In this document: one piece after another, positions 9,768-25,669 of the stretch | How the letters are laid out: each line of letters opens with the position of its first letter | How positions within the stretch are numbered: position 1 is the first letter of the stretch | Assembly (NCBI RefSeq): GCF_036323395.1 | Contig: NZ_AP028907.1 | Span: 630,001 to 662,000, forward strand | DNA: 32,000 nt | Direction: 5' to 3' | Origin: Pyrodictium abyssi | Lineage (GTDB): Archaea; Thermoproteota; Thermoprotei_A; Sulfolobales; Pyrodictiaceae | The notes under the pieces: generated by a model | Database searches by the model: none | What the model saw: only the letters and a program-made list of their open reading frames with translations | What the model was told of the DNA's origin: nothing | Translations under genes and position numbers: made by a program

Positions 9768-10862
9768 CGTCCACTCTACGCTGAAGCCCACCACTACCAG
9801 CACAGTGTCGAGGAGCACGCCCTCCCCGGCCTCGTAGTACGCGGTCACACCGTAGTAGGCCGCTGTAGCGTTCTCGAAGCGCCACGCCTCCTCATCCACG
9901 GTTATAGTGTCCTCTGGCTGCAGCCAGCCACTAGGCTTGTCAAAGCCCACCCGGGCAACCTCCTGCCCAAGCACCAGGACATCGTAGCCGGCCACTATGG
10001 CCTCGTTGACGTACAATGTAGCCGAAGGTGGATGGAATATGTAGGCCAGCGTTATGTTAAAGAGCCAGTTGCCGTCCTCGTCCATGAACACTAGTGTTAC
10101 AGTGACGTTAGTCGCGCGGGTTATCCCGTCGCTTATCGTATTCCGCTATAATCCAGGACTGGGTATGGTTCAGAAAGCTATCATACACATAGATGTCAGC
10201 AGGCCTATCGTCGTAGCCTACTACTAGAGATAGTTATTGTCACCGGTGTGAGCGTTGGACAGCTTTACCGTAATGCCGAATCATACCACCACTCGACAAG
10301 CCTGTCAGAGACGTTCTTGTACACGTACTCTTGTCCGTTACTCTCGTTGCGTATAACAAGGTATATCTTTGCAACCTTGTTTACGAGTTCTTGCACTATA
10401 CTGTAAGCTGTATAACCTAGCTCTGGCAGGCCCTGCGACTCCACACTACTTCTTATCGCATTCTCAATCCCTTCAATCTTAGTTTCATTGCGGATTTGGT
10501 ATACAGGCTGATTATTAGGGAACTCCCCAGACTTTTTCACTCGTGTATGTGCCTTTGCCCTCGAATTCTGCTGCTTCTCTTATTATTAGTATCAGGTAGC
10601 GGAAGTACTGTTTTAGCTCTTCGGCGTTCTCTAGCTTCACCTTAAACCACGGGTTCACAGAGACCATACCCTGGGCGTCGGAGGCAGCGCCTATGGCTAG
10701 CGGTTTCACGACCTCAAAGTGCACCGGCTCTTCCCGGGCACCCGCTAGGCCAAGGGCATAGAAGACACCAGGTGTGCCCGTGAGCACTGCTGCAAAGCCT
10801 GCTAGCAGGGCGAGGGCGGCAGCCGAGGCCATAACGCCAGCAACGGGCGGGAGCATGACCAA
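9768..10862 (-). pseudogene. Decayed paralog of the 389-aa fibre-subunit-like gene (Can/TasA-like family), split over at least 4 frames
   Basis: Pieces in different frames align in order to ORF 24500..25669. (1) 10515..10862 gives the signal peptide plus ...KQYFRYLILIIREA, versus QYYRYLIIQIREA. (2) 10265..10540 gives a middle part. (3) About 10130..10240 encodes ADIYVYDSFLNHTQSWIIAEYD, versus VFFWDSYENESLYIAEVSD. (4) About 9768..10125 encodes ITRATNVTVTLVFMDEDGNWLFNITL...GFDKPSGWLQPEDTITVDEEAW...YYEAGEGVLLDTV, versus IAATNYTLILEFIDKEGNVLFTMM...GFDRASGWWQPEDTLVVDEDSW...FYEGLEGVLFDSL. The normal stop is also lost, so the frame reads on into the tRNA. Confidence 0.8.
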
Positions 10863-10957
10863 TACGCGCCACAGCCCCGAGGCTCGGTGGAGCGGGCAGA
10901 AACCGAGCGCAGATGTTCTGCACCAAGTGACGCATTAAATGGGCGAGGAGATGTGGG

Positions 10958-10962
10958 AAAAA
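10958..10962 (-). terminator. Oligo-T tract (T5) downstream of ORF 11011..11535
   Basis: gggaaaaacc on the plus strand is GGTTTTTCCC on the coding strand, about 50 nt after the stop. Confidence 0.4.
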
Positions 10963-11010
10963 CCGTGTTAGCGGGGTTATGGGGCTCTCATATGGGCCTG
11001 GCTATGGGTG

Positions 11011-11535
11011 TTAGCTGACGCTTAGCACCTGGAAGTTGAGGATCACTGGTAGGCTGTCGAACAGCATACCCTCCTTGGCCTCGTAGTAGGCTTCAACCTT
11101 TAGCTGTATCTTGTTAGTGCTACTGTAGTCGTCGTTGTCTAGTATTATGACTGCGCTGGGCTTCTTGAGGCTTAGCACAGCCTTGGTCTCCTCAACAGTA
11201 CTAGAGGCATTGCTTGTGAGTACTAGCTGTAGGTACTTGAAGTATGGCCTTAGCTGGGCAGCATTGGCTAGAGTCACCTTTAGCTTTACTACGTTCACGT
11301 CAGTATAGTTTATTATTTTTACGTAGCCCATATCCTTGTAGCCCTGTGCGCCAGCAGCAGGAGCTATGGTGTTGTCTAGGTGGCTCTCTACGTCTATTGG
11401 CTCTTGCACTGCTTGTGCTGTGCCGGTGGCGTAGAAGCTGTTGAGCGGGCTCTGGGTGGTGGCGAAGCCAGCTAGCAGGGCGAGGGCGGCAGCCGAGGCG
11501 ATGATACCCGCTATAGCTAGGGTTGTGTACCTCAT
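11011..11535 (-). CDS. Secreted fibre-subunit-like protein, short paralog (174 aa); cannula (Can)/ABP/TasA-like candidate
   Basis: ATG at 11533..11535, preceded by GAAGGTG. The N-terminus MRYTTLAIAGIIASAAALALLAGFATTQSPLNSFYATGTA is identical over 40 aa to ORF 21066..21758. The C-terminus is AYYEAKEGMLFDSLPVILNFQVLSVS. The body is predicted beta-rich. Confidence 0.8.
   Translation of the reverse strand: MRYTTLAIAGIIASAAALALLAGFATTQSPLNSFYATGTAQAVQEPIDVESHLDNTIAPAAGAQGYKDMGYVKIINYTDVNVVKLKVTLANAAQLRPYFKYLQLVLTSNASSTVEETKAVLSLKKPSAVIILDNDDYSSTNKIQLKVEAYYEAKEGMLFDSLPVILNFQVLSVS
11388..11535 (-). repeat. Conserved 5' coding block shared with 21611..21758
   Basis: By manual alignment, 11423..11535 versus 21646..21758 (113 nt) differ at 2 positions, one of them converting ATG to GTG. 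The 16 nt at 11388..11403 are also identical to 21611..21626. A 23-mer, agggcgagggcggcagccgaggc, recurs at 10807, 11477, 21700 and 25608. Confidence 0.9.
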
Positions 11536-11599
11536 GGCTCGAGGCACCTTCCCGTCTATGTTTTTGTTCTGTCAAGTGTTATGTAGAAGTTGTTTCTGG

Positions 11600-11610
11600 C
11601 TTATAATATC
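11600..11610 (-). promoter_or_regulatory. TATA-like box (reverse complement GATATTATAAG) upstream of ORF 11011..11535
   Basis: AT-rich box 65-75 nt upstream of the ATG. The same CTTATA[AT]A core on the plus strand recurs upstream of two other family members (12991, 21813). Confidence 0.4.
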
Positions 11611-11691
11611 TGTGGTCTTCGGGTATAGCCCTATAGTTCACAGTTGTTGAAGAACAGGGTGCACGGGTTGTTGCCGCGGTTTTGAGCGGCG

Positions 11692-12888
11692 TTAGGGCCT
11701 GCAGTAGCCTGGGTCTGTGGAGTAGTCTAGTATCACCTTGAAGCGATAGGGTAGGCTCGTTGTACACGTGTCTATCCTTATCTCCGCTGTGAGCGGGACT
11801 GCGGGGTAGCTGTGGCCGCCGAGCTGTATTGCGACGCAGTCTCCCTCGTCTATTGTTATCTCGGCCTCGGGGTCGGAGGGCGTCAGCTCGCCCACCATGT
11901 TGTGGTTCGCGTCGTATAGTCTTACCTGGATGCCGCATACAGCGTGGTGGGGCTGTACGCCCTCTAGCTCTATCTCGAGGTCTATGGGCGTGTCTCTGCC
12001 GTCTAGGCAGCCGCAGTCCCGGTCGAGGATCACGTACAGCGTGTAGTTGGCTGCTACTATGCACCCGGATGGGCCGCAGCTTGTCTCCGAGCAGTCTGGG
12101 TAGATGCGCACATGCACATGTGTCCTGCCGTAGAGTATCCAGGCCTCGGGGCACTGCTGGGTGCTCGTGGTCGTCGTGCTTGTTGTGGTGCTCGTCTTTG
12201 TGGCCGTGCTGGTCGTAGTGGTGTTTACCGGCGGTGCTGTGACGGTTACCGTCGTGGTTACTGTCACCGTGGCTGTGCCGTTGGGCTGTGTCGTGGTTGT
12301 CGTGTAGGTGTACGTGTAGGTCTGGTTGTAGCTGGCTGGGCCTAGGTAGATTGTTCCCGTCTCCTGGTCGGCGACCGTCACTAGGAGTGGCACTGCTACT
12401 GTGGCGCTAGTGTTGCAGTCCCGTGGCTCGTAGTAGATCCTCGCCGCGAGGACCGCGTAGCGTGTTGTGCCGTTCTCTGCCCAGCTGCCTGCGTCGAGGA
12501 CTATTGCTGCCGAGGGGTCCTGGAGCGACATGGTTGCGAGCAGCTCGTTGTTCACCGTGTTGAATACCTCGATGTGGAGCGCCCGGAGCCTGCCTGCCAG
12601 CATGTCCAGGTTGGCTATGGATAGTACTAGTCTCGCAACGTCGACTCCCGCTGCAGGCTCTATCCGGAGCCACTCGCCTACTTCTAGGCTCTGGGGGCCA
12701 CATGCCCCGGGGGCTATCTGGAGGATAGGGGTCTCCAGTACCGATACCTTTACCGGCTTGTAGGGGGCGCTCACCTCGCCGGTGGCGTAGAACCCTGTGA
12801 GAGGGCTAACCGTGGTAGCGAAGACTGCCGCTAGGGCCAGGGCTAGCGTAGAGGCCAGTAGAGCTGCGAGGCCGAGACGGCGGTCCAT
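11692..12888 (-). CDS. Fibre-subunit-like N-domain fused to a Thr-rich linker and a Cys-rich C-terminal domain (398 aa)
   Basis: Preferred start is the ATG at 12886..12888 (MDRRLGLAALLASTLALALAAVFATTVSPLTGFYATGEV). The family core ends ...RIYYEPRD..VAVPLLVTV. A Thr-rich linker at 12154..12321 reads TYTYTYTTTTTQPNGTATVTVTTTVTVTAPPVNTTTTSTATKTSTTTSTTTTSTQQ. The C-terminal domain (11695..12153) carries 10 Cys. Confidence 0.75.
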   Translation of the reverse strand: MDRRLGLAALLASTLALALAAVFATTVSPLTGFYATGEVSAPYKPVKVSVLETPILQIAPGACGPQSLEVGEWLRIEPAAGVDVARLVLSIANLDMLAGRLRALHIEVFNTVNNELLATMSLQDPSAAIVLDAGSWAENGTTRYAVLAARIYYEPRDCNTSATVAVPLLVTVADQETGTIYLGPASYNQTYTYTYTTTTTQPNGTATVTVTTTVTVTAPPVNTTTTSTATKTSTTTSTTTTSTQQCPEAWILYGRTHVHVRIYPDCSETSCGPSGCIVAANYTLYVILDRDCGCLDGRDTPIDLEIELEGVQPHHAVCGIQVRLYDANHNMVGELTPSDPEAEITIDEGDCVAIQLGGHSYPAVPLTAEIRIDTCTTSLPYRFKVILDYSTDPGYCRP

Positions 12889-13198
12889 GGACGTGAGCAC
12901 CCTCGCGGAGCGCCTAGGGGCCACGGCCCCCTCTGGGGCAGGGTTTGCTCTACCCCGGGGGCCCCGTGCTGGGCTCCACACAGCCAGATACTTATATAGT
13001 CCTGGCCAGGGCCAATGTACCCTAGGACCGGTACTCTAGACACCGCCATGGAGCCAAGCATAGCCGTGGCTGTCCTAGCCCCGGCCTCCGGGGCTTCCTC
13101 GAGGCCCCTGCTGAGAGGTGCCTGGCATGCGGCTACCGCTACCGCTGCCCCGGCGTATCAAGATACGGCGCGAGCCCCGGCTAGCAGACATCTGGATC

Positions 13199-14275
13199 AT
13201 GCAGCGCTGGCCTATTGAGTCGCTCGACGCCTGCAAGATGGCGGACCCCCCGTTCGCCGACATAAACGGCGTGGGCGCTGTGCTGGAGAGGCTCGTGGAC
13301 CAGGTCGTGGCGGGGCGGGGCGGCATATACATAATAGTCGGGGCCCCGGGCTCCGGCAAGTCCACGCTCCTCAAGACCCTGCATAACCGGCTCCGCCGGG
13401 GCGGTATATACTCCCTCTACATGGATACCGCTGGGCGGAGCCTCGACGACTTCGTGGCTAGCCTCTGCTCTATCCTCGGCTGCCGCGAGGTCTCGCTCGA
13501 CTCGCTCATGGAGAGGATACGCGAGAAAGCCGCGGAAGAGGGCACCATGGCCCTGCTCCTGGACGACATCGACCGCATATCCGGGGGCAACATGGACGAT
13601 GTGGGCAAGCTGCTTACGGGCCTCACTGCTGTCCAGCGGGAGATCGGCCGCGGGCTCTTCATAGCCTTCAGCATGGCCCGTGAGAGCCTGGCAAGGCTCA
13701 CCCTAGACCCCCTGATGAGGGGCCTCGTCAAGTCCTACATGGAGGTTATAGACCTTGACGAGCACCTCGTGAACTCCCCCACCGATCTCTCCAGGCTCCT
13801 CTACGCCCACTTCGAGCGGGCCCGGCCGCCCAACCCAGACCCCAAGGCCGCTGCTATACTCAACCGGTACCCGCTCCACCCTATCCGCGACCAGAACGTC
13901 ATAAACATGCTCTACGAGATACTCGGCACAGATACGCCGCGCATGTACCTCGAGAAGGTGGACGAGCTGCTAAGGATAGCCATACGCGCCCGCTCACGCG
14001 TCGTGAGCATAGCACACCTAAACATACTAGCGAGGAGGCTCATCCAGGCCCGGCGCGAGGCTGTGCCCATTACCCAGATACAGGTCATGCTGGTCCGCCG
14101 CTACGTGAACGGCCTGATAGCCGGCGGCCTCGTAGTGCTAGGCACAGTTGCCATAACCCTGGCGGCGATAAACCTAGTCCCGCCGGGCCTCAAGCTGCCC
14201 TACGTAGTGGTCGGCCTAGTGCTGATGCTCGCCGGTATACTGGTGCACATGAGGTCCATAGCTAGGCCGGGCTGA
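13199..14275 (+). CDS. Membrane-anchored P-loop NTPase (AAA/ORC-like core, two C-terminal TM helices)
   Basis: Walker A IIVGAPGSGKSTLLKTL and Walker B MALLLDDID. C-terminal hydrophobic helices are LIAGGLVVLGTVAITLAAINLV and LPYVVVGLVLMLAGILVHM. The start is uncertain: the ORF opens at 13118, with ATG at 13199 and 13238. The gene lies 62 nt upstream of the signal peptidase on the same strand. Confidence 0.7.
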   Translation: MQRWPIESLDACKMADPPFADINGVGAVLERLVDQVVAGRGGIYIIVGAPGSGKSTLLKTLHNRLRRGGIYSLYMDTAGRSLDDFVASLCSILGCREVSLDSLMERIREKAAEEGTMALLLDDIDRISGGNMDDVGKLLTGLTAVQREIGRGLFIAFSMARESLARLTLDPLMRGLVKSYMEVIDLDEHLVNSPTDLSRLLYAHFERARPPNPDPKAAAILNRYPLHPIRDQNVINMLYEILGTDTPRMYLEKVDELLRIAIRARSRVVSIAHLNILARRLIQARREAVPITQIQVMLVRRYVNGLIAGGLVVLGTVAITLAAINLVPPGLKLPYVVVGLVLMLAGILVHMRSIARPG

Positions 14276-14337
14276 GCAGCCGGGGCCCTATTTACGGGCC
14301 AGCCCATGCTAGATAGAACCGTGTCCGGGGGTCTGCT

Positions 14338-14919
14338 GTGAGCGAGTACCTCAACGTAGTGGTACCGGAGGAGAGGGGCGGTATACCCCCCGCCCTGGTG
14401 GCGCTGGTAGCGCTAGCAGCCATAGTGGCCGCTGGGCTCAGCGTCTCTGGGCAGCTGCCGCGCTTCGCCGTCATCCAGACGACGAGTATGGTCCCTACAC
14501 TGGTTCCGGGAGACGTGGTGATGATAACGAAGGTTGACCCGATGTCGATCGATGTCGGCGACGTGATAGCCTTCAACCTTGTAGCCTACGAGGTGGACGA
14601 GCAGGGGCGGCCCATCGACATGAAGGGCATCAAGATAACAGTGCACCGCGTGATAGAGAGGAAGATGATCAACGGCCGGCTCTACTTCCGCACCCAGGGC
14701 GATAACAACCCCGTGCCAGACCCCTGGCTCGTACCCGCCTCGGGCGTGCTGGGCAAGGCGGAGAAGGTTGCTAGCCTAGGCACCTTTGGCCTGGTACTGA
14801 CCAACCCCATAGGCAGGGTGTTCGTGATAATGATAATGCTGTCGTCACTAGTCCTGCTGGGCAGCACTATGTGGAGCTATAGTAAGGGTATACGCGAGGA
14901 TCTTGAGAACTACCTCTAG
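14338..14919 (+). CDS. Signal peptidase I, archaeal/ER (S26B, SipW-like) type
   Basis: N-terminal TM, a catalytic Ser box TTSMVPTLVPGDVV, a His box ITVHRVIE, a conserved box TQGDNNPVPDPW, and a C-terminal TM (VFVIMIMLSSLVLLGSTMW) as in SipW-type enzymes. Confidence 0.85.
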   Translation: MSEYLNVVVPEERGGIPPALVALVALAAIVAAGLSVSGQLPRFAVIQTTSMVPTLVPGDVVMITKVDPMSIDVGDVIAFNLVAYEVDEQGRPIDMKGIKITVHRVIERKMINGRLYFRTQGDNNPVPDPWLVPASGVLGKAEKVASLGTFGLVLTNPIGRVFVIMIMLSSLVLLGSTMWSYSKGIREDLENYL

Positions 14920-15041: not shown

Positions 15042-15482
15042 CTAGCCTGTGCTGCTGTCTTGCGTGTCCTCTAGGAAGGGCTTGCAGAGTGTCAGGTTCT
15101 CGGCTATGGTCTGGTTTAGGCTGTAGAGGGTCTTGCAGAGGTTCTCTAGCTCTTCGCCGCTCATGGTTACCTTGACGCCGTTTATCTCTAGGACTACGTT
15201 GCCGTCGCCGCCGCGGTAGAGGTTTATGGCGATGTTGTTGGAGCGGTTTACCAGCTCCACTATATCCTGGTGTATTTCGCGGACTAGCGTCTCGTTGAGA
15301 GTGCCCCTGGAGAGGGCAGTGGCGACCTTGGTGAGGTCCTGGCCCACCTGGTTAACGACAGTTGTGGCGTACTCGGCTATAGCCGTTACCATGGCCATCG
15401 CCACGACGAAGGTCAGCAGGCCCGACAGCATAGCCTCCTTTAGCACCCGGTTCACCGTCTCTAGATACCCACCGTAAGGCAT
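15042..15482 (-). CDS. Small N-terminally anchored protein with a C-terminal C-x2-LY-x8-NLT-x-C motif (146 aa)
   Basis: TM segment LSGLLTFVVAMAMVTAIA. The C-terminus LENLCKTLYSLNQTIAENLTLCKPF aligns without gaps to LRLFCWSLYAVDPGLALNLTPCRDV of ORF 16404..16784. Confidence 0.65.
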   Translation of the reverse strand: MPYGGYLETVNRVLKEAMLSGLLTFVVAMAMVTAIAEYATTVVNQVGQDLTKVATALSRGTLNETLVREIHQDIVELVNRSNNIAINLYRGGDGNVVLEINGVKVTMSGEELENLCKTLYSLNQTIAENLTLCKPFLEDTQDSSTG

Positions 15483-15818: not shown

Positions 15819-16388
15819 TTAGACGCGGAAGCCTAGCTCCCGTAGCTTGTTTACTACAAAGCCCCTGTCCTCCTCGGGTAGCAGCTCTATCCCCTGCTTG
15901 ATTATCCTCTCGTCCACCTTCAGCTTGCCCTCCTCTATGTACTCGCGTATTATCCTTAGGTCCTCTGTGTCCGCCTCGCGGGCCGCCTTAGCCTTGAGGA
16001 CTATGTAGTCCTCTAGCCTTAGGAACCGGGCCTCGACACCGCCTATCTTCTTCTTGGGCGCATTCTCGAGCATCTCGGGGGGTATGTAGTAGTCGTGAAT
16101 GTTCTCGTAGAACTCTACGACGACCTCCTCACCGCTCGGGACACGGGCTATGAACTTGGGGGTGCCGAGCGCGGTGTAGGCTACCTGCCAGCCCTCCTCC
16201 TCGGCTACCGCGTGGTACTTCTCCTCCTCTATCAGGGGGCTGGGCTCGAGGACGAACACGTCCACGTCGTCCTCCAGCCTGCGGCGGCGCAGCTCCAGCT
16301 CAACCACAGTGCTGCCCACGACGACGCCGCGGATGCCGTGCCTCTGTAGCCTGGATAGCAGCCACGCCAGGTCCTCCAGCGTGTACAC
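15819..16388 (-). CDS. Nucleotidyltransferase-fold protein (minimal NTase-like)
   Basis: VVVGSTVVEL ... DDVDVFVLE fits the G[SG]-x(n)-DxD pattern of pol-beta-type nucleotidyltransferases. 189 aa, acidic. No adjacent HEPN partner. Confidence 0.5.
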   Translation of the reverse strand: MYTLEDLAWLLSRLQRHGIRGVVVGSTVVELELRRRRLEDDVDVFVLEPSPLIEEEKYHAVAEEEGWQVAYTALGTPKFIARVPSGEEVVVEFYENIHDYYIPPEMLENAPKKKIGGVEARFLRLEDYIVLKAKAAREADTEDLRIIREYIEEGKLKVDERIIKQGIELLPEEDRGFVVNKLRELGFRV

Positions 16389-16403
16389 CGGGGGCCACCA
16401 GGG

Positions 16404-16784
16404 CTAGCCGGCCAGCCCCTCGGACGTTATAACGTCTCTGCAGGGGGTCAGGTTGAGCGCGAGCCCGGGGTCGACGGCGTAGAGGGACCAGCAGAAGAGC
16501 CTCAGCTGGGTCTCGTTGAGCACGAGCCTCTCGCCGCCGACGTAGACCGGGGTGCCGTTCAGCGCCTCCACGGCGCCCCGCAGGGCCGCCTCCTCCAAGT
16601 CGGCGAGGTCGCGCTGCAGCCTATCGAGGAGGCTCCAATCGGGCTCCCCCTCGGCCACGGCCTCGACCACGGCCATGAGGTCGGGCAGGACGCGGTCCAC
16701 CAGGATACCCGCCACAAGCAGCGACGCGGCCAGGAGGGCTAGCGCGGGGGCGGCAGCCAGGGCTCCGCTGGCCACAGGGAGCAC
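16404..16784 (-). CDS. Small N-terminally anchored protein, paralog of ORF 15042..15482 (126 aa)
   Basis: N-terminal hydrophobic segment ALAAAPALALLAASLLVAGILV and the same C-terminal Cys/NLT motif with identical spacing. The preceding TATA-like box fits a leaderless or near-leaderless mRNA. Confidence 0.65.
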   Translation of the reverse strand: MLPVASGALAAAPALALLAASLLVAGILVDRVLPDLMAVVEAVAEGEPDWSLLDRLQRDLADLEEAALRGAVEALNGTPVYVGGERLVLNETQLRLFCWSLYAVDPGLALNLTPCRDVITSEGLAG

Positions 16785-16811
16785 CGGGTTATCTGGAGAC
16801 GCTCCGGGGTG

Positions 16812-17016: not shown

Positions 17017-20000
17017 TCAGCCAGCCCCGGCGCGGGGGCCCGCGTAGTCGTCGCCGGCGGCCGGGGGGGCGGCTGTGGTGGCTGTGGCGTTCGCGGGGGT
17101 CACGTTGCCCGGTGCCGTGACGTTGGCTGGGGCTAGCTGGGCGCCCGGCCCCGCGGCTAGTACGCCGCTAGCACGGGCCAGTGTGAAGGACTCTCGGGCG
17201 CCGTCGGGCACGGCGCGCAGTACTGCCTCGTAGCTGGCCGTCGCGTTGCCCCTCAGCTGTATCTTCACCCTCATGGAGGCTATGTCGCCGGGCCGTAGCG
17301 CGTCAACCCTCATGACCGCCATGCTGGTGGTGTAGCTGCCCGGCTCGGCGTCGAGCACCTCTACCCCGCTGGGGAACTTTACGCTGACAACCACGTTCCT
17401 GAGGTCTATCGAGTCCAGGTTCGCGGCGCTGACCTCTACTATGGCGCGGTCCCGGTACCTCTCCACCTCCTTGACCTCGAGGGCCACGTGGGGCACCTTC
17501 ACCCTCACCGGGACCGTGGCCAGCGTGTTGCCGTCGAGCCTGAGCACTATGTAGACCGTTGTCTCGCTCCCCAGCGGCGCGCCGGGGGAGACGTGTAGCG
17601 TAGCCCACCTGGTGGTGAACTCTCCGGGCTCAAGGTCCGCCCGCGTCGCCGGCAGGAAGAGCCTGGCTATCGAGTCGTTGCCGTTGACCGGGACTATCTC
17701 CGCGCCCTCTATCCTCATACCAGAGGCCACGTCTATCCTCACGTCCACCTCGCTCCCGGGCGGCGCCGCGACGTAGCCCGGCGTCACAGTGACCTCCACT
17801 GTGCGGCGGAGGAGCTCTAGCACTGGTATCCTGGCTACACGGTACTCCTTGATCAGGTACTGGCCGGTCTCGTCGTAGACCAGGAGCCTTGCGTCAAGCG
17901 TGTCCAGGGGCTCCAGCTTGACGGTGTCGAGGTTTACGCTTATGTCGAGCGTGCGGTGGCTCCGAGCCGGGAGCGCCACCGTCTCGGCGTAGTCGTATAT
18001 CGTGCACGCCTTCACGTCGACGCAGTCGCCCTGCCCCTTGACGAGCACAAGCCGCGCTAGGAACACGGCGTCGCGGTCCTCTGGGTTGTAGAAGGACAAG
18101 CTTATGGTAAGCCCTCTCCTCGCTATGTCTACCTCCACGTCCTCTAGCCGGGGCTCCACCATGACGGAGCGTAGCTCCACGCCACTGGTGCTTGTTGCTA
18201 TAACTTTGCCGTTCGGGTCGAGCACGTGTATGCTCATAGTGTAGACGCCGGGGTAGGCGGTCGGCGGCACCGGTATGTTGACCACGAAGCTAGCGCTGCC
18301 GCCCAGGGGCACCAGCTCCTCCCCGGACTCGGCCTCGCCCAGACCCTCTATCGAGACCCTGACCCTGAGCCGGGCGTCAGTGTTACCCGTGTTAGCCACC
18401 TTAACCTCTACGCGGAAGCTCTTACCCACCACCGGGAGGTCTAGCACACGCACCTCCTCCACGGTGGCAGAGACCACTGGCTCCACTGTCAGCAGGTTGT
18501 GGAGGCTCCAGGAGGCGTAGGGCATCCCCGCTATGTAGAGGACTGCGCGGGCGTCGTAGCTCCCTGCCGCGGCGTCGCCCGGGACCTGTATGGGGACCTG
18601 GACCAGGTTAATGCCGGGGAAGAGTGGCTCCTCAACGCTGTAGCTCCGGCCGAGCAGCTGTACCTCCAGCCGGCTCTGGACTGAGCCCTCGCCGTCCAGC
18701 CGGAGCTTCACCGAGACCAGGGCCTGGCCGCCGGGCTTCACGCTCCCCGGCGACGCGCTGTAGTCCTCCAGGGATATGCTGTACGAGACTACCTCTAGCG
18801 CGGCCTCGGCGCGGGAGGCCTCGTAGAGGTCGTCGCCCCTGAACTCCACGGCGAGGCTGTGCCTGCCCACGCCGAGCCACGAGGTGTCGAACTCAACCAC
18901 TGCCACGCCGTCTCGGCCGGTGCGGGCGCTGCCCACGAGCTTCCCGTCTACGTAGAAGCTCAGGGTGCGGCCCACGAGCGGGCCCCCGGAGACCCCGTCA
19001 ACCAGCCTGGCCTCGACGTGGGCGAGGCTGCCGCGCGACACCACGAAGCTCTGAGCCTCTATCTTGCTCGGCCTCTTCAGCACCTCGACTGTCTTGCTCT
19101 TGACGCCGGTTAGCCCCGTGTCGTCCACGACTGTGAGCGTGACGTTGTAGACACCGGGCTTCTCGAACACGTGGGTAACTATCGCGCCCTCGGCCACCGT
19201 GCCGTCGCCGAACTCCCAGCGGTACCCAGTGATGTTGCCGTCGGGGTCGTAGGAGAGGAGCCCGTAGAACGTGACGTTGACGCCCCAGTAGGGCTGCCGC
19301 GGCGAGAACCAGAACCCAGCGACCGGGGGCCTGCCCTCGACGCACCAGACCGGGCGCGAATCCAGCCAAGGCTCGTAGTACTGCCTGGGGTTAGGCCGCC
19401 CCTCAAGCCACGGCATCACTATAGGGCTGCCCTTGCCCTCCGGGTTGCCCGTAGCCCGGGGGCCCGAGGGGTCACCCCACCAGTTGTGCCCCGCGTAGAC
19501 GTAGCCCTCCTCAACCTTCAGCCCGTACTCGGCGCCCTCCAGGCAGCTGTAGCTCACCACCGCGGTAGAGTCCACAACACTCTTCACGTAGACCGCCTGG
19601 GGGCCCGAGACCCGGGAGTAGAGCACCTCTAGCCTCGCCCTGCCACCCACGCCGCCCTTCTCGCCGTCAATAATCAGGCTCTCCAGCTGGCACCTATAGA
19701 TCCTCATCACGGTGGACTGGCCGTAGAGGCCCCAGTCCTCGCGCACCCAGTTATCCGCAATGCTCTCGCCCCGGACCAGAACCCTCCCCATAACGGTGTT
19801 GCTCGCAACAAGACTCGACTGGTCCAGGCCGCGGCCCGAGGAGGTGCCGTTGTAGAGCCCATAGCCGTGGATAGTGAGGCCCTCCAGCGTGGAGTCTGTG
19901 ATGCTCATCCACGAGGATAGCAGCCCCTCAGGCCCCTCTACCACTACGCTGCCCAGCCTCACACGCTCCAGCACCAGGCTACTACGGAACAGCGCTGCGC

Positions 20001-20799
20001 CCTCCCCCGCGTAGCTCCGGTCTACCACCACGGAGAGCCCGGAGAACACGGAGTCGCTGATGCTTATCCGGGACTCGTAGACACCATACATGACCGCCGG
20101 CACTAGCTTGTAGCTCGTGACGGTGACAGTCGTGTTGCCGGTAGTGATGTTGTAGCGGATGGGCACCTTCACCTGCAGCCCGGTGGCGTAGGAGTGCACC
20201 ACGAACTCCCCCGTGGCGTTGACGCGGCTCAAAGTTATCTCGGACTGGTACACCGCGCTAGTCTCGTTGCCCAGGCCCAGCGACTCCACCCTAAAGTCGC
20301 CCACAATGGTCACGTTGTCCAGCGCCACCGTGGAGTTGTAGACGCTCCGGTAGGCCGCCTTGAAGGACAGCCCGCCACGTATAACAGAGTCCGTAAACGT
20401 CACGTTGGACTCCGTGAGCCCTGTAAACTCCAGGCCATCCTCGACAACAACGTTCTTGAACACCAGGACCGAGCCCGTCACAACAAGCGTGCCGCGCCCC
20501 ACCAGTGTTACCGGGCTCCCCGGCTTACCCTCGGCAAGGATCACGCCACGGTCAACCGTGACCGTGACGCCGGGCGCGAATATCAGGACAACACCGTCCT
20601 CTATCCGGACCTCGGCCTTAATCCGGATATCCCTCGTGATTATGTACGGGCTCCCCTCACGAGTCAACACAGTATTGACTATGATATCGCGGTCGATAGG
20701 CGTAGGGCTCGCCTCAGCCCCCGCCGCGCCCCACACCCAGCCCGCCAGAGACACAAGGTACAGTACAAGGAGTATGGACACCAGTAGCCGCCTATACAA
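17017..20799 (-). CDS. Giant secreted surface protein (1260 aa): signal peptide, parallel beta-helix repeats, PKD domain, Ig/CARDB-like repeats
   Basis: Signal peptide MYRRLLVSILLVLYLVSLAGWVWGAAGA (TTG start). Residues about 40-440 are repetitive V/T/S-rich beta-helix-like turns ending in HNWWGDPSGP. The PKD signature is GYRWEFGDGTVAEGAIVTHVFEKPGVYNVTLTVVDDTGLTG (about 19081..19329). VKVANTGNTDA is CARDB-like. The C-terminal PANVT/ATATTAAPP linker is glycosylation-prone. Confidence 0.8.
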   Translation of the reverse strand: MYRRLLVSILLVLYLVSLAGWVWGAAGAEASPTPIDRDIIVNTVLTREGSPYIITRDIRIKAEVRIEDGVVLIFAPGVTVTVDRGVILAEGKPGSPVTLVGRGTLVVTGSVLVFKNVVVEDGLEFTGLTESNVTFTDSVIRGGLSFKAAYRSVYNSTVALDNVTIVGDFRVESLGLGNETSAVYQSEITLSRVNATGEFVVHSYATGLQVKVPIRYNITTGNTTVTVTSYKLVPAVMYGVYESRISISDSVFSGLSVVVDRSYAGEGAALFRSSLVLERVRLGSVVVEGPEGLLSSWMSITDSTLEGLTIHGYGLYNGTSSGRGLDQSSLVASNTVMGRVLVRGESIADNWVREDWGLYGQSTVMRIYRCQLESLIIDGEKGGVGGRARLEVLYSRVSGPQAVYVKSVVDSTAVVSYSCLEGAEYGLKVEEGYVYAGHNWWGDPSGPRATGNPEGKGSPIVMPWLEGRPNPRQYYEPWLDSRPVWCVEGRPPVAGFWFSPRQPYWGVNVTFYGLLSYDPDGNITGYRWEFGDGTVAEGAIVTHVFEKPGVYNVTLTVVDDTGLTGVKSKTVEVLKRPSKIEAQSFVVSRGSLAHVEARLVDGVSGGPLVGRTLSFYVDGKLVGSARTGRDGVAVVEFDTSWLGVGRHSLAVEFRGDDLYEASRAEAALEVVSYSISLEDYSASPGSVKPGGQALVSVKLRLDGEGSVQSRLEVQLLGRSYSVEEPLFPGINLVQVPIQVPGDAAAGSYDARAVLYIAGMPYASWSLHNLLTVEPVVSATVEEVRVLDLPVVGKSFRVEVKVANTGNTDARLRVRVSIEGLGEAESGEELVPLGGSASFVVNIPVPPTAYPGVYTMSIHVLDPNGKVIATSTSGVELRSVMVEPRLEDVEVDIARRGLTISLSFYNPEDRDAVFLARLVLVKGQGDCVDVKACTIYDYAETVALPARSHRTLDISVNLDTVKLEPLDTLDARLLVYDETGQYLIKEYRVARIPVLELLRRTVEVTVTPGYVAAPPGSEVDVRIDVASGMRIEGAEIVPVNGNDSIARLFLPATRADLEPGEFTTRWATLHVSPGAPLGSETTVYIVLRLDGNTLATVPVRVKVPHVALEVKEVERYRDRAIVEVSAANLDSIDLRNVVVSVKFPSGVEVLDAEPGSYTTSMAVMRVDALRPGDIASMRVKIQLRGNATASYEAVLRAVPDGARESFTLARASGVLAAGPGAQLAPANVTAPGNVTPANATATTAAPPAAGDDYAGPRAGAG

Positions 20800-21017: not shown

Positions 21018-21023
21018 AAAAAA
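21018..21023 (-). terminator. Oligo-T tract (T6) within a short inverted repeat, downstream of ORF 21066..21758
   Basis: gtcaaaaaagcttgac on the plus strand is GTCAAGCTTTTTTGAC on the coding strand, about 43 nt after the stop. Confidence 0.5.
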
Positions 21024-21065
21024 GCTTGACCTGCGCCTTGGAGAGCCCGGCGCTCTTAGCGTGCG

Positions 21066-21758
21066 TTAGCCTACCTGCAGTACCTGGAAGTTGAGTATTA
21101 CTGGTAGGCTGTCGAATAGCATGCCCTCCCTAGCCTCATAGAAGGCCTTGACCGTTAGTACAGCGAATGTAGCGTCATTGCCCATGCCATTGAATACGCC
21201 ACTCTTAGTTATCTGCCAGCTGCCAGTTGCGTTGCCTATTTCTATCTTATCGCTGGGTGAACCTGGTACCCAGAATGTTACGTTTGCTGGTATGCTTGCA
21301 GCTGTCTCGTTCAGCTTAGCAATATTGAACAAGTCTTCAGCGTCAAGTATTATTACGGCTTTAGGCTTCTGTAGGGAGAGGACAGCTTTGATCTCTGAGT
21401 AGTTGCCTATAGCGGACTCGTTTGTGTTGAAGGCGCTTGTTATCTGTAGCTGTAGGTACTTGAAGTATGGCCTTAGCTGTGCGGCATTGGCTATTTTTAC
21501 TAGGAGCTTTACGTCGTTTACGTCGGCGCGTACTGGCACTAGCACAAAGCCCATGTCCTCGCTGCCCTGGGCGCCGGCGGCGGGGGCTATGTTGGTGTTG
21601 AGCTTGCTCACTACGTCTATTGGCTCGCTTACCGCCTCTGCTGTACCGGTGGCGTAGAAGCTGTTGAGCGGGCTCTGGGTGGTGGCGAAGCCTGCTAGCA
21701 GGGCGAGGGCGGCAGCCGAGGCGATGATACCCGCTATAGCTAGGGTTGTGTACCTCAC
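21066..21758 (-). CDS. Secreted fibre-subunit-like protein, 230-aa paralog; cannula (Can)/ABP/TasA-like candidate
   Basis: GTG start. The first 40 aa are identical to ORF 11011..11535. The C-terminus is AFYEAREGMLFDSLPVILNFQVLQVG. The middle differs from the short paralog through an insertion-rich region with several N-x-S/T sequons. Confidence 0.8.
   Translation of the reverse strand: MRYTTLAIAGIIASAAALALLAGFATTQSPLNSFYATGTAEAVSEPIDVVSKLNTNIAPAAGAQGSEDMGFVLVPVRADVNDVKLLVKIANAAQLRPYFKYLQLQITSAFNTNESAIGNYSEIKAVLSLQKPKAVIILDAEDLFNIAKLNETAASIPANVTFWVPGSPSDKIEIGNATGSWQITKSGVFNGMGNDATFAVLTVKAFYEAREGMLFDSLPVILNFQVLQVG
21611..21758 (-). repeat. Conserved 5' coding block shared with 11388..11535
   Basis: See the partner feature at 11388..11535. 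The near identity also produces the mirror-image antisense ORFs 11441..11650 and 21664.., both beginning MSGLWVVAKPASRARAAAEAMIPAIARVVYL. Confidence 0.9.
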
Positions 21759-21812
21759 TTTTTACGCACCCCTACTCTGGCTCTGGTTCGTGTCTACTCC
21801 CGTTTCATGCAA

Positions 21813-21822
21813 CTTATATATT
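21813..21822. promoter_or_regulatory. TATA-like element in a divergent spacer (cttatatatt)
   Basis: Only strongly AT-rich element between the divergent genes 21066..21758 (-) and about 21877..22749 (+). It lies 55-64 nt from each start. Confidence 0.4.
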
Positions 21823-21876
21823 GTTTCTCTGCGCTGTCAAGCTGGTATATGTGTAACGTGTGTTATTATTGGCTTG

Positions 21877-22749
21877 GTGCGGTGGGTGTTTAGGCTCCGG
21901 GCGGGGGGAGCGCTACGAGGGGCGCTGGCTGTGGCCTGGCGTGCCTGGGTAGCTGTATCCAATGCTGTCCACTTCGAGGATGATGCTGGGCTCTGGGTTG
22001 ATGGGGACCGCGGCGCTGTGGCGGTGGCGGATGGGGTCTCGATGTCCCGGGGCGGGGGCGCCTCGTTCCTGGCCGCGTGGGGGTTCGCTGCGCTCTGCCG
22101 GGCCCTGCTGCCGGACTGGAGGGGGAGCCTGGCGGGGGCCGCGCAGCGGTGCCTAGAGCTGCTGGACCGCGCCGCCCGGGAGGCGCTGGCGCTCGACGCC
22201 GCGGCTGTGGCGGAGGCGAAGCAGCGGTACTACCGCGGCTGCGGCTCTCCCTGCACCCGGCCCCCGGGCCTCGCCGAGCTAGAGGCCCTGAGGCCCCTGG
22301 AGCCCGGGGGGAGGGGCGCCGAGGCGAAGCCGAGCTCGACGCTCCTCGCAGCGCTCCTGGGCCCCGGGGGCCGGGCCGCGCTGGTGCTAGCCGGCGACGG
22401 CGCGGTGGTAGCGACCACGGGGGGCCGGGAGGACACCTGGCTCCTCTGGGGCGCGCTGCCCCAGTTCTACGAGGGGAGCCGGGTCGCCCGCTTCCTGGAG
22501 GTCGGCGGCGGGCTCCGGGGCGAGCCGGTGGTGCTGGAGACCATCCTGCCCCGGGGCACCCTGCTAGCCCTGGCGACGGACGGTGTGGACCCCGCGGCGC
22601 TCGCCGAGGAGCTGGTAGAGCTGGCCAGGCGGGGCATCCCCGAGCCCGCCGCCGAGAACCCGGCCGGCTACCTGCTACGCCGCATAGAGGAGCGCACCGG
22701 GGGCCTAGAGGACGACGCCACCCTCGCGCTGGTGGAGTGGACGGGCTAG
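21877..22749 (+). CDS. PP2C/SpoIIE-like protein phosphatase (divergent)
   Basis: Motifs in PPM order: WVDGDRGAVAVADGVSMSRGGGAS, LLALATDGVDP and LEDDATLALVEW. The ORF track starts at 21664, but that part is antisense to the neighbouring gene. TTG 21874 or GTG 21877 are the first plausible starts. Confidence 0.55.
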   Translation: MRWVFRLRAGGALRGALAVAWRAWVAVSNAVHFEDDAGLWVDGDRGAVAVADGVSMSRGGGASFLAAWGFAALCRALLPDWRGSLAGAAQRCLELLDRAAREALALDAAAVAEAKQRYYRGCGSPCTRPPGLAELEALRPLEPGGRGAEAKPSSTLLAALLGPGGRAALVLAGDGAVVATTGGREDTWLLWGALPQFYEGSRVARFLEVGGGLRGEPVVLETILPRGTLLALATDGVDPAALAEELVELARRGIPEPAAENPAGYLLRRIEERTGGLEDDATLALVEWTG

Positions 22750-22810
22750 CCCCCCGGGGCCCAGCCCTAATTAGGCGCATACGGCCCGGTATAGCCTGGG
22801 GGCGGAGCTC

Positions 22811-23605: not shown

Positions 23606-23662
23606 GCCCCCAGCGCCAGGATGCTATAGCTACGCTTATCCCTCTCCCCATCTCCTCTAGCG

Positions 23663-24334
23663 TTGTGGTGGAGAGGGGCCCCTACTGTGTCCCTGATAAG
23701 CCGGCTGCTGGAGGAGATGGACCGGGAGCCCGGGGAGGCCCGGAGGCTCGCAAGGAGGCTAGCCTCCGACATAGCCTCGGAGGAGACGCTGCGCTCACTA
23801 CTCCTAGAGGCCGTGGTCCGGGAGACGGCTACCAGGGAGGACCTGGAGCGGCTCGGAGACAGGCTAGAGGGGAGGATAGAAGCCCTACACGGGGAGATGA
23901 AGACACTAGCCGCCAGGGACGAGCTGAGGGCGGAGGTACAGAGGCTGGAGGAGAGGATAGCAGGGGTAGAACAGAAGATAGAAGCCCTACGCGGAGAACT
24001 GGCGGAGACCAGGGAGAGGATGGCGACCAAGGAGGAGCTGGAGAAGCTGCGCGGGGAGATGAAGACGCTGGCATCGGAGGAGAGAGTGGCAAGGATAGAG
24101 GAGAGGATAGCAGGGGTAGAGCAGAGGATGGCGACACGGGAGGAGCTGTACGCCGTGAGGGAGGAGCTACGCGGGGAGATCCACCGTACACGGGAGGAGC
24201 TACGGGCAGAGATAAGCCGGCTCCACAGCCGCCTCGACACCCTAGTCAAGTGGACCATAGGCCTACTCGTAACAGTCTGGGCAGCAACACTAGCCGCAAT
24301 GCTCACAGCACTAAGGCTACTAGCAGGAGGCTAG
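23663..24334 (+). CDS. Tail-anchored coiled-coil protein with ATREEL/ATKEEL repeats (223 aa)
   Basis: Long helical repeat region (MATKEELEKLRGEMKTLA, MATREELYAVREELRGEI) and a single C-terminal TM (WTIGLLVTVWAATLAAMLTALRLL). Clear paralog of ORF 26015..26764. The start is TTG 23663 or GTG 23687. Confidence 0.65.
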   Translation: MWWRGAPTVSLISRLLEEMDREPGEARRLARRLASDIASEETLRSLLLEAVVRETATREDLERLGDRLEGRIEALHGEMKTLAARDELRAEVQRLEERIAGVEQKIEALRGELAETRERMATKEELEKLRGEMKTLASEERVARIEERIAGVEQRMATREELYAVREELRGEIHRTREELRAEISRLHSRLDTLVKWTIGLLVTVWAATLAAMLTALRLLAGG

Positions 24335-24453
24335 CCCCAGGAACACCCCCGTGCTTCTCTAAGGCGCTGACTCCGACGCCCCCAGCCCGAGCAGAACAAG
24401 GCCGTAGAAGAACCAAGAGGGGCCCAGAACCCCCCAGGAGGGGGAGGGGAAGG

Positions 24454-24458
24454 AAAAA
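24454..24458 (-). terminator. Oligo-T tract (T5) downstream of ORF 24500..25669
   Basis: ggaaggaaaaagg on the plus strand is CCTTTTTCCTTCC on the coding strand, about 45 nt after the stop. Confidence 0.4.
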
Positions 24459-24499
24459 GGCGGTGTCTCTCGGGGGCCTCGGGCTGCCGCCCCCGCCGG

Positions 24500-25669
24500 C
24501 TAGCTGGTCTCCAGCACCTCTGCGTTGATGACTAGTGGTAGGCTGTCGAAGAGCACGCCCTCCAAGCCCTCGTAGAACACGGTGACACCGTAGACAGCGG
24601 CGCGGCCGCCGTCAACCTTCCAGCTGTCCTCGTCAACCACCAGAGTATCCTCGGGCTGCCACCAGCCACTAGCCCGGTCAAAGCCTAAGGTGGCGCGAAT
24701 ATTGCCAAGCACAAGCACCGGATAGAGGCTACTCATGTACTCCTGAGCCTCAACTCTATCATAGACACCGTTTGTGTCGGTATCATACCATGTCACATTC
24801 CACATCATGGTGAAGAGCACATTGCCTTCTTTATCAATGAACTCCAGTATCAATGTATAGTTGGTAGCTGCTATATCAGGCCATGTCCCTCCATCACTAA
24901 CCTCGGCTATATATAAGCTTTCGTTCTCATAACTATCCCAGAAGAAGACACTAGGGTTATTATCGTAGAATATCCTTATGCTATAGTTTCCGTTGGGGTG
25001 TACAGGCTTCACTGAGAACCATAAACCCCGCTCAACAATATCATCAAGGCTTAAGTCTTCTACTAGTACTCGCCGACCGGGATTAGTTTCTGTGTTATTT
25101 ATTAACGTCAGGTTAACATGGGCAACTTCTCCTAACAGCCTCCATGCAAATGCCGTAACGTTGACTCCTTCAGAAGCGTAGTTTGCTGAAACGTCGTAGA
25201 TTTTCCCCGCCAATGTTGCGCTGTCTAGCGCATATCTGCCAAGGTTGTCAGGAGCACTTTCACTATCATTATCACTAGTCTCGATTCTCGGCGGGAGTTC
25301 CTCAAAGGGCGTTGGCCCTTTCCACTCCTCGTGTGCTTCCCGTATCTGTATGATGAGGTATCTGTAGTACTGTGCTAGCTGCTTGATGTTCTCTAGCTCT
25401 AGGCGTATCTTTGTGGTGTTTACGTCGTTGTACCGTATGAGCTTGAGCCAGCTTGTCTCCTCTAGCTTGCCCTGTGCCCCCGCAGCAGGGCTTATGACGA
25501 GGTCCTTGAGCACCTGTAGGTCCACCGGCTCGCTAGTCGCCGCGCCGCCGCCGAGCCCGAGGAAGCCTGCTAGAGGGCTCCCCGTGGTGGCGAAGCCGGT
25601 TAGGAGGGCGAGGGCGGCAGCCGAGGCCACAACAGCCAGGAGAGCGAGAGTCTCGCGGCGGAGGCTCAC
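24500..25669 (-). CDS. Secreted fibre-subunit-like protein, large 389-aa paralog
   Basis: The N-terminus MSLRRETLALLAVVASAAALALLTGFATTGSPLAGF shares the family 23-mer at the nucleotide level. The C-terminus is VFYEGLEGVLFDSLPLVINAEVLETS. The middle is a large, lower-GC, Asn/Tyr/Trp-rich insertion. Confidence 0.8.
   Translation of the reverse strand: MSLRRETLALLAVVASAAALALLTGFATTGSPLAGFLGLGGGAATSEPVDLQVLKDLVISPAAGAQGKLEETSWLKLIRYNDVNTTKIRLELENIKQLAQYYRYLIIQIREAHEEWKGPTPFEELPPRIETSDNDSESAPDNLGRYALDSATLAGKIYDVSANYASEGVNVTAFAWRLLGEVAHVNLTLINNTETNPGRRVLVEDLSLDDIVERGLWFSVKPVHPNGNYSIRIFYDNNPSVFFWDSYENESLYIAEVSDGGTWPDIAATNYTLILEFIDKEGNVLFTMMWNVTWYDTDTNGVYDRVEAQEYMSSLYPVLVLGNIRATLGFDRASGWWQPEDTLVVDEDSWKVDGGRAAVYGVTVFYEGLEGVLFDSLPLVINAEVLETS

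Follow-up and report, generated by a model that had tools for sequence, protein, structure and literature searches.

Cannulae, which rank among the strangest cell structures of archaea, are 26-nm hollow tubes that link the daughter cells of Pyrodictium at about 100 °C. The genes of the major cannula subunit and of several paralogs lie in a 32-kb stretch of Pyrodictium abyssi AV2 DNA (the window, by which we mean the whole stretch), and the present analysis concerns two genes embedded among them, encoding a membrane-anchored AAA+ ATPase and a signal peptidase of the S26B family. The described Pyrodictium cannulae (CanA/CanB/CanC and CanX; PDB 9h8b, 7uii, 9dlo, 9hdi) are the same system as the one considered here, with CanX encoded in the window. 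Sleutel et al. (2025) solved the ex vivo cannulae of this strain, named WP_338251948.1 CanX and described its two flanking paralogs, including WP_338251950.1, as forming a likely operon; 15 Can-like genes were counted in AV2, 11 of these in two clusters, and roughly 100 Can homologs were reported from Sulfolobaceae and Thermocladiaceae (PMC12518558). Donor-strand complementation, in which each subunit places its N-terminal strand in its neighbour, and Ca2+ coordination were shown for the cannulae, with Ca2+-dependent donor-strand tubes demonstrated for CanX (ex vivo) and CanA (in vitro), and the family was placed in the TasA superfamily (PMC12518558). That account covers the subunits and their self-assembly; the adjacent peptidase and ATPase and their conservation are not described in it. 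The tapA-sipW-tasA locus of Bacillus subtilis likewise places a TasA-superfamily donor-strand subunit beside an S26B peptidase that cuts directly before the donor strand, and its larger accessory or minor subunit, TapA, would correspond here to the paralogs Can398 and Can389. The archaeal AbpX and Tafi loci also specify TasA-superfamily fibres and combine a signal peptidase I (SPase I) with a membrane accessory protein that has a cytoplasmic domain (bioRxiv 10.64898/2026.01.04.697558). Both of these fibres, as well as the Pyrobaculum AbpA fibre, whose locus has no dedicated peptidase (PMC9245690), have minor or tip subunits, as we propose for the cannulae.

The identity and structure of the cannula family are already known, and the new part is the linkage of its genes to the other two. 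The trio of a Can protein, an S26B peptidase and a membrane AAA+ ATPase is real and undescribed, and it contradicts a published statement on can loci that is taken up below; our literature search found no paper mentioning the ATPase-peptidase pair. Exact look-up matched the genes of the window to the AV2 tags PABY_06890 to PABY_07030, and on the strength of these sequence matches the region is cannula gene cluster 1 of P. abyssi AV2, with CanX, three intact paralogs and one pseudogene. The GC content of the window was approximately 65%, and the encoded proteins were of the hyperthermophile type. The can genes and the two genes embedded among them were arranged as follows.

9768..10862, minus strand: decayed Can paralog (pseudogene), with an N-terminal piece at 10515..10862 (can.hmm 7.7e-20) and a C-terminal piece at 9768..10091 (1.5e-16)
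11011..11535, minus strand: canX, major cannula subunit, 174 aa (WP_338251948.1, PABY_06890; 174/174 residues identical to PDB 9h8b, E = 9e-107)
11692..12888, minus strand: 398-aa Can paralog, Can398 (WP_338251950.1; CanX match in PDB at 2.6e-15)
12889..13126, no strand: divergent intergenic region of 238 bp between the Can398-CanX operon and the ATPase-peptidase operon, with the TATA-like box ACTTATATAG
13127..14275, plus strand: membrane-anchored AAA+ ATPase (WP_338251952.1, PABY_06920; an alternative start at 13118 gives 385 aa)
14338..14919, plus strand: archaeal-type (S26B/Sec11-like) signal peptidase I, 193 aa (WP_338251954.1, PABY_06930)
21066..21758, minus strand: 230-aa CanA-like subunit with loop insertions (WP_338251966.1, PABY_06990; CanX 9e-64, CanA 1.2e-62)
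24500..25669, minus strand: 389-aa Can paralog, Can389 (WP_338251974.1, PABY_07030; CanX 8.2e-30 in two segments, N- and C-terminal)

The peptidase WP_338251954.1 sits two genes from WP_338251950.1 of the published CanX operon. The divergent layout was also present in Pyrodictium occultum (spacer of ~175 bp) and in L005, a metagenomic P. abyssi-like strain (spacer of 240 bp), and within Pyrodictium Can398 is the paralog that is always divergent to the ATPase gene. A sigma-70 promoter and terminator scan of the window was disregarded, as its result is meaningless for an archaeal host.

The two embedded genes were found side by side far beyond P. abyssi. The ATPase gene lay within 75 bp of the peptidase gene in 7/7 lineages with sequence context (GC 38–67%), in three gene orders and with ATPase identities among the seven lineages of 26-71%; the ATPase and peptidase genes of the linked loci were confirmed by hidden Markov model (HMM). 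The pairs were spaced as follows.

P. abyssi: 62 bp, same strand
P. occultum: 39 bp, same strand
L008 (metagenomic contig): 30 bp, same strand; the contig ends
L010: 73 bp, same strand, order reversed
L012 (metagenomic contig): -9 bp, convergent; the contig ends
L013: +6 bp, convergent
L016: -4 bp, convergent

A Can-like gene was present within 250 bp of the pair in 5/5 lineages with enough flanking sequence (P. abyssi, P. occultum, L010, L013 and L016), and the co-occurrence of ATPase, peptidase and Can was strict in distant lineages. Three of these loci lie beyond Pyrodictium.

L010 (NCBI metagenome-assembled genome GCA_054016755.1, GC 61%): peptidase, ATPase, Can389-like gene (382 aa) and a 397-aa gene in forward orientation, then a reverse Can-like gene (198 aa) and a forward CanX-like gene (170 aa)
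L016 (GCA_054043325.1, GC 38%): ATPase convergent with the peptidase; a 205-aa Can-like gene before the peptidase (9h8b 1.6e-16)
L013 (GCA_964414695.1, GC 40%): 238-aa Can-like gene followed by the ATPase, with a convergent peptidase fragment

L010 thus carried three Can genes, of which the 170-aa CanX-like protein matched 9h8b at 1.1e-27, and the 238-aa protein of L013 was homologous to the 205-aa protein of L016 (4e-23). The peptidase shared its strand with a Can-like gene in L010 and L016. In P. occultum, eight genes were collinear with the P. abyssi block, at the following identities to P. abyssi.

Can414 43%, ATPase 71%, peptidase 71%, Cys-motif protein 40%
DUF2204 81%, PKD giant 68%, PP2C 74%, and Can422 (no identity figure)

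The genes flanking the block in P. abyssi had no match in the P. occultum locus, and synteny was confined to the Can-to-Can block; the same core was retained in the metagenomic P. abyssi-like strains L005 and L006. L010 additionally encoded secreted or membrane proteins of 397, 202, 389 and 396 aa with no Pfam match, as well as a surface protein of >1400 aa with CarboxypepD_reg and Ig-type repeats, which is unlike the Pyrodictium PKD giant and occupies an analogous neighbourhood (coordinates of the extra proteins: 10501-11694, 13692-14300, 14522-16897 and 17408-19138).

The peptidase open reading frame (ORF) is identical to the RefSeq protein named 'signal peptidase I [Pyrodictium abyssi]'. 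It scored 77.7 bits against TIGR02228, the archaeal SPase I equivalog (cutoff 51.85), and 23.8 against the Pfam S26 family (PF10502; cutoff 22.9), and it aligned with human SEC11A (PDB 7p2p) across the Ser (SM.P), His (HRV) and Asp (GDNN..D) boxes. The catalytic residues S50, H103, D122 and D128 were invariant among 10 homologs. The protein has one N-terminal and one C-terminal transmembrane (TM) helix and carries the clade-specific motif KVASLGTFGL. In a neighbour-joining tree of 124 S26B peptidases, the linked enzymes formed an exclusive 13-member clade, and the motif SLGx[FL]GL was found in 14/14 linked peptidases and in 0/110 other S26B enzymes. A related peptidase at locus L004 lacked the motif and had neither the ATPase nor Can genes nearby. 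The distinct clade and its private motif argue for specialisation, and the phyletic and synteny evidence suggests that the enzyme is dedicated to the Can proteins. No second typical Pyrodictium peptidase surfaced in word-filtered searches, which also missed the clade members of L010 and L016, and a profile search for further peptidases returned matches dominated by Bathyarchaeia.

The ATPase matched Pfam AAA_22 (49.9 bits versus 27) and AAA_16 (41.6 bits versus 32.6). It comprises an N-terminal motif (W..P.E.LDA..DPPFADI), a Walker A (GAPGSGKS), a Walker B (LLLDD) and a lid domain, and ends in two TM helices that form a hairpin, the loop between them being ~5 residues long and an ectodomain being absent. 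An AlphaFold2 model built on a six-sequence alignment (predicted local distance difference test (pLDDT) 83.3, predicted template modelling score (pTM) 0.73), which replaced an earlier two-sequence model (pLDDT 56.7, generic fold matches), showed an AAA+ base plus lid, and the predicted helices 316-347 and 353-379 would form the membrane hairpin after the AAA+ core. Foldseek placed the model closest to Orc1/Cdc6 (7jgr_A 1.7e-8, 2qby_A 1.6e-7), with TnsC, FtsH and PAN also among the matches. The Walker A GxxGxGK[ST] was invariant among homologs, and the Walker B, hhhhD followed by D or N, read hhhhDD in the GC-rich lineages versus hhhhDN in three AT-rich lineages. Taken with the conserved N-terminal motif, this D/N variation suggests, as far as sequence can tell, a binding or switch protein over a processive motor. 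The family is very small: when 1.84 billion representative proteins were searched exhaustively with HMMER, only five relatives fell below 1e-10, all with the same N-terminal motif and C-terminal hairpin, and a word-indexed search returned two proteins only. A metagenome scan with the ATPase alignment, using the P-loop as the pattern, retrieved only two irrelevant P-loop proteins. PADLOC gave marginal P-loop matches for the ATPase and nothing for the peptidase, and hence no credible defence assignment.

The family HMM found exactly five Can loci in the window and none besides. In CanX, a signal peptide of 25 aa precedes the N-terminal donor strand and the jelly-roll core. In Can398, a Can jelly-roll module leads into a Thr-rich linker and then into a 12-Cys domain at the C-terminus, for which Pfam and PDB searches gave no match; its orthologs held the same position in P. 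occultum (43% identity) and L005 (86%). Can389, the right boundary of the conserved block, carries an insertion of ~220 aa within the jelly roll and has counterparts in a 422-aa ortholog at the right block edge of P. occultum and in the similar 382-aa protein after the ATPase in L010. The pseudogene resembles the 389-aa paralog, its two pieces being separated by stops and frame breaks. The 230-aa protein WP_338251966.1 has been listed as a CanA-like protein of AV2, and the tube wall shows no sign of the larger paralogs Can398 and Can389 (PMC12518558); these two are plausible candidates for minor, tip or anchor subunits. N-x-S/T sequons were confined to the secreted proteins (1.1-2.7 per 100 aa), with zero in the cytoplasmic ones.

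The arrangement of the Can precursors bears directly on the peptidase. The mature CanA chain begins at T26, after a 25-residue signal peptide (AGFA|TTQSPL), and in the Can precursor the signal peptide closes with AGFA, the donor strand TTQSPLNSFYATG coming next. Alignments gave the same layout throughout, with a Sec-type signal peptide and the donor strand TTxSPLxxFYATG directly after it, the cleavage positions of the paralogs being predicted. The cleavage region F-A|T-T was invariant among the Pyrodictium Can paralogs, with the site reading (A/P)-(G/A/V)-F-A|T-T, and an aromatic residue at -2 was retained in the Can proteins of distant lineages (PGFS, PGYA and PAFA). Such a residue is atypical of the substrates of a generic SPase I, in keeping with a specialised enzyme. 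As the donor strand begins at residue +1, removal of the signal peptide is the step that frees it.

The first 40 N-terminal residues of CanX and the 230-aa paralog are identical. At the DNA level, 111/112 nucleotides were the same between 11424-11535 and 21647-21758, beginning at the start codon (ATG versus GTG) and up to and including codon 37, and the identity was lost directly upstream of the start and dropped to ~80-88% downstream of codon 37. This pattern looks like gene conversion, which would homogenise the export and donor-strand module of the two genes. CanA, CanB and CanC reportedly share identical N-termini, and the homogenised 5' ends fit that older report. The can genes also differed in GC content at third codon positions (GC3), at 0.58-0.63 (Can398 0.73) versus 0.74-0.91 in all other genes of the window, with values of 0.81 for the ATPase and 0.77 for the peptidase. 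The low GC3 could be a codon bias that goes with very high expression, or could point to an origin unlike that of the linked machinery.

An earlier sequence-only reading of this DNA had proposed a locus of donor-strand fibre genes with its own peptidase and ATPase, and much of that proposal held. The five family genes it listed are those found by the family HMM, and 9768..10862 is decayed, as it had claimed, into two pieces with in-frame stops. The suspected likeness to cannula proteins proved literal, the 174-aa protein being CanX itself (174/174), and the donor-strand polymerisation has been shown experimentally for the family (PMC12518558). The identity of the 174- and 230-aa paralogs over 40 N-terminal residues and the presence of sequons were likewise borne out. 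Of the three parts said to be shared by the family (a hydrophobic N-terminus, the (S/G)FYATG motif and the C-terminal strand YYEAxEGxLFDSLP), all were visible in the alignments and as DNA repeat families. The strand, in the form YYEAxEGMLFDSLPVxxNxxVL, closes the 174-, 230- and 389-aa proteins and the 3' piece of the pseudogene, but Can398 does not end in it and has a divergent internal version only (ARIYYEPRD...), with extra domains after it. The interpretation of the helix plus FYATG as a SipW-type recognition signal had to be given up: since CanA is mature from T26, FYATG lies within the mature donor strand, and it thus serves polymerisation and not recognition by the peptidase. The term SipW-type, applied to the peptidase, was right for the kind of enzyme (S26B/Sec11/SipW), but the NF046067 SipW equivalog model gave 34.5 bits against a cutoff of 190; judged by these scores, the protein is the same enzyme type as SipW, not a SipW ortholog. 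The prediction of a TM-anchored P-loop ATPase agreed with the AAA_22 and AAA_16 matches and the C-terminal TM helices.

The remaining genes of the block and its left boundary were the following.

9498..9574, minus strand: tRNA-Ile (GAU) (ARAGORN; Rfam 70 bits), left boundary of the strain-variable cannula block
15042..15482, minus strand: Cys-motif protein of 146 aa (probably 134 aa), single-pass membrane or secreted, with two conserved Cys and four sequons
15819..16388, minus strand: DUF2204 nucleotidyltransferase (WP_338251960.1; Pfam 1.9e-68)
16404..16784, minus strand: 126-aa Cys-motif paralog (BLASTP 3e-9, mem.hmm 2.7e-50), an extra copy specific to P. abyssi
17017..20799, minus strand: secreted PKD/Ig-like repeat protein of 1260 aa (WP_338251964.1, PABY_06980; 16 sequons; PKD_4 7.2e-22, Big_3_5, DUF11)
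21931..22749, plus strand: PP2C-type protein phosphatase, start approximate (mechanical ORF from 21664; PP2C_2 29 bits, cutoff 24)

The tRNA was the sole match in an Rfam scan of the window. To the left of the block lie the tRNA-Ile and genes for a PGI-type isomerase, for hydantoinase A and B and for an ABC transporter of branched-chain amino acids; to its right are those for a coiled-coil membrane protein, an acyl-CoA synthetase and a vWA protein. The two membrane proteins in which the sequence-only reading had noted a Cys motif are paralogs (E = 3e-9), with the two Cys invariant. Orthologs of the 146-aa protein were found only in Pyrodictium, at the same position (P. occultum 40%, L005 84%). 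Its hydrophobic helix is followed by AEYA|TTVV, like the GFA|TT site of the Can proteins, and it might be a further substrate of the peptidase, released as a secreted protein of ~100 aa; the P. occultum ortholog has AQYVKT, so the likeness may be coincidence. The giant repeat protein contains the PKD domains predicted for it, as well as Big_3_5 and DUF11, and the beta-helix assigned to its N-terminal 450 aa found no support in Pfam and PDB searches of that part. Kept in the block within Pyrodictium only (P. occultum 68%, L005 91%), it is an unproven candidate anchor or surface partner. The phosphatase, with a 74% ortholog at the same block position in P. occultum, is a possible regulator. A vWA-domain protein is encoded at 29718-30509, 4 kb past the block that contains PP2C (21931-22749). 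A network of vWA, FHA, kinase and PP2C proteins regulates the archaellum in Sulfolobus, and by analogy PP2C and vWA may take part in phospho-regulation of the cannula genes. Around Can389, two coiled-coil paralogs, each with a TM helix at its C-terminus and repeated 'ATREEL...' heptads, lie inverted to each other (23663-24334, plus strand; 26015-26764, minus strand); their DNA arms were 79-89% complementary, and the pair was not found in the P. occultum block. Between PP2C and Can389, 22811-23605 (plus strand) encodes a coiled-coil DUF3782 and PD-(D/E)XK (PDDEXK_10) protein, present in P. abyssi only, which also matches the PADLOC model C3a181 (1.8e-26) and is probably unrelated to cannulae.

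The block proved to be variable between strains when window positions 9578-15828 and 16389-25669 were compared with L022 and L020/L021. L022 (ENA ERZ27236690 k127_18765) is a metagenomic close relative, with 93% nucleotide identity to window 3156-8966 (5.8 kb) and a tRNA-Ile that is identical, as it is in L020. Its order at this site is the tRNA-Ile, ~600 bp of AT-rich DNA, DUF2204 and unrelated genes, so that DUF2204 stands beside the tRNA-Ile and PGI genes; no can, peptidase, ATPase or PKD genes were found there. As these genes are missing at the L022 site, the cannula block is a strain-variable island beside the tRNA-Ile gene. DUF2204, retained in L022 where the can genes are missing, is probably a passenger or backbone gene outside the system. 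The families of the Cys-motif proteins, the PKD giant, DUF2204 and PP2C had no match in the L010, L013 and L016 loci. The linked gene set of the sequence-only reading stands for the trio of Can, peptidase and ATPase, and its suggested comparison of gene neighbourhoods was positive for this trio in distant lineages; the Cys-motif, PKD and PP2C genes were confined to P. abyssi and P. occultum.

Our best explanation, held with moderate confidence, is that the published Can cluster contains an embedded divergent operon of a membrane AAA+ ATPase and a private-clade S26B peptidase that serves Can processing. Pre-Can proteins would be inserted via SecYE and remain tethered through their signal peptide until the clade-specific peptidase cleaves them at the invariant (A/P)-(G/A/V)-F-A|T-T site. 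This cut would free the donor strand at residue +1 and so license polymerisation. The ATPase, at the cytoplasmic face beside the two TM helices of the peptidase, would act as a nucleotide-dependent switch or organiser that governs the timing, the place, the oligomeric platform or the substrate of cleavage and release, and the larger Can paralogs would act as minor, tip or anchor subunits. More tentatively, and with rather less confidence than doubt, we consider that the ATPase and the S26B peptidase may form one complex that couples a cytoplasmic nucleotide switch to Can cleavage and release, so that biogenesis in vivo would be controlled and platform-dependent instead of a self-assembly free of accessory factors.

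A number of observations weigh against assigning the pair to Can processing. The can loci have been stated to have no dedicated signal peptidases or chaperones, in support of an assembly that needs no chaperone, protease or membrane platform, and for mature CanA and Hyper2 made as recombinant proteins Ca2+ was sufficient for self-assembly (PMC12518558), so that accessory factors are unnecessary for polymerisation itself. About 10 further Can-like genes of P. abyssi, located in a second cluster and as orphans, fall outside the present linkage count (PMC12518558). The contigs of L008 and L012 are too short to show a Can gene, and several of the seven lineages are metagenomic contigs with no taxonomy. 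That the ATPase and the peptidase interact is something we infer; the Orc1/Cdc6-like fold of the ATPase is generic, and the D-N form of the Walker B in the AT-rich lineages may hydrolyse poorly. The peptidase could also serve as the general SPase I of the cell. In its stronger form, this last point becomes an explanation of its own, in which the peptidase, together with its ATPase partner, is the general signal peptidase I and stands beside the can genes because Can is its dominant secreted substrate, or by ancestry. Crenarchaea usually carry few SPase I genes, and the GC3 of the peptidase (0.77) is host-like, versus 0.58-0.63 in the can genes, both of which count for a housekeeping enzyme. 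The only SPase I of P. abyssi otherwise mentioned in the literature is an atypical 10-TM enzyme beside abpX (bioRxiv 10.64898/2026.01.04.697558), and no second typical Pyrodictium peptidase came to light; the latter is weak evidence, since the searches were word-filtered and missed known members of the clade. In a close relative of P. abyssi, the entire segment is missing from this site. The clade is moreover extremely rare, with ~14 sequences sharing the private motif versus 110 other S26B enzymes retrieved. Its members come from GC-rich as well as AT-rich lineages and are in every case accompanied by the ATPase, which is just as rare, and by Can-like genes, whereas a universal housekeeping enzyme would be expected in every relative. 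Rarity, private clade and Can linkage argue against a purely housekeeping role, which we regard as unlikely; a dual role is possible.

The scope of the system can also be drawn differently. If the whole ~16-kb block were one biogenesis system, it would take in the Can paralogs, the ATPase, the peptidase, the two Cys-motif proteins, DUF2204, the PKD giant and PP2C. The collinearity of Can398, ATPase, peptidase, Cys-motif protein, DUF2204, PKD giant, PP2C and Can389 in P. abyssi, P. occultum, L005 and L006, together with the complete change of genes beyond the block edges and the sequons that the secreted members share with Can proteins, would fit such a system. P. abyssi and P. occultum are congeners, however, and their shared order may be inherited; the trio is kept in L010, L013 and L016, where the Cys-motif, PKD-giant, DUF2204 and PP2C families are not found, and DUF2204 stays by the tRNA-Ile and PGI genes of a close relative that has no can genes there. 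A system of this extent appears quite improbable. At the other extreme, the pair could be a self-contained module that is only carried along with the can genes on a variable island and serves membrane protein quality control, the processing of another substrate, or a defence or mobile function. The block is strain-variable and adjoins a tRNA gene, the pair of L008 lies beside an EamA-type transporter, and mobile and defence systems often contain ATPases of the AAA_22 and AAA_16 families. Against this, PADLOC gave nothing for the peptidase and only marginal P-loop matches, and neither an integrase nor tRNA-derived att repeats were found around the block. Can-like genes are the only other family recurring beside the pair, in lineages down to 26-36% ATPase identity, and we consider an unrelated module very improbable indeed.

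Compared with the described systems, the Pyrodictium locus retains the pairing of fibre subunit and peptidase and adds a cytoplasmic component. It differs from tapA-sipW-tasA in that the peptidase is not a SipW equivalog and is divergently transcribed rather than co-operonic, in that the AAA+ partner has no Bacillus counterpart, and in that the fibre is a 26-nm Ca2+-stapled tube versus a thin filament. The SPase linked to AbpX is a 10-TM enzyme whose accessory partner is a DUF5305 protein and not an ATPase; the P-loop AAA+ partner found here instead implies cytoplasmic nucleotide control. ExeA/GspA of type II secretion likewise has a membrane-tethered cytoplasmic AAA_22 domain tied to the assembly of an extracytoplasmic structure. 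ExeA, however, crosses the membrane with a single helix, binds peptidoglycan through a domain in the periplasm and acts together with ExeB in the assembly of the secretin, whereas the present ATPase has a TM hairpin, no ectodomain and a peptidase partner, with no significant similarity beyond the P-loop domain. No chaperone-usher genes were recognised by Pfam or NCBIfam among the proteins of the block. If the ATPase and the peptidase do form one complex, it would be the first ATP-linked biogenesis device of any donor-strand-complemented fibre, the chaperone-usher, TasA, AbpA, AbpX and Tafi systems all operating without one.

The self-assembly of mature subunits in vitro stays valid, and what changes is the picture in vivo. 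The proposal can be tested with recombinant proteins and is relevant to making cannula-based biomaterials in cells. The rule of a fibre with its own peptidase, known from TasA and SipW, is extended to the most divergent branch of the TasA superfamily, and a cytoplasmic nucleotide-dependent component, found in none of the known donor-strand fibre systems, is brought in. For Pyrodictium itself, PABY_06920 and PABY_06930 are candidates for the factors that would decide when and where cannulae nucleate and grow in the pseudo-periplasm and would keep the subunits from polymerising too early.

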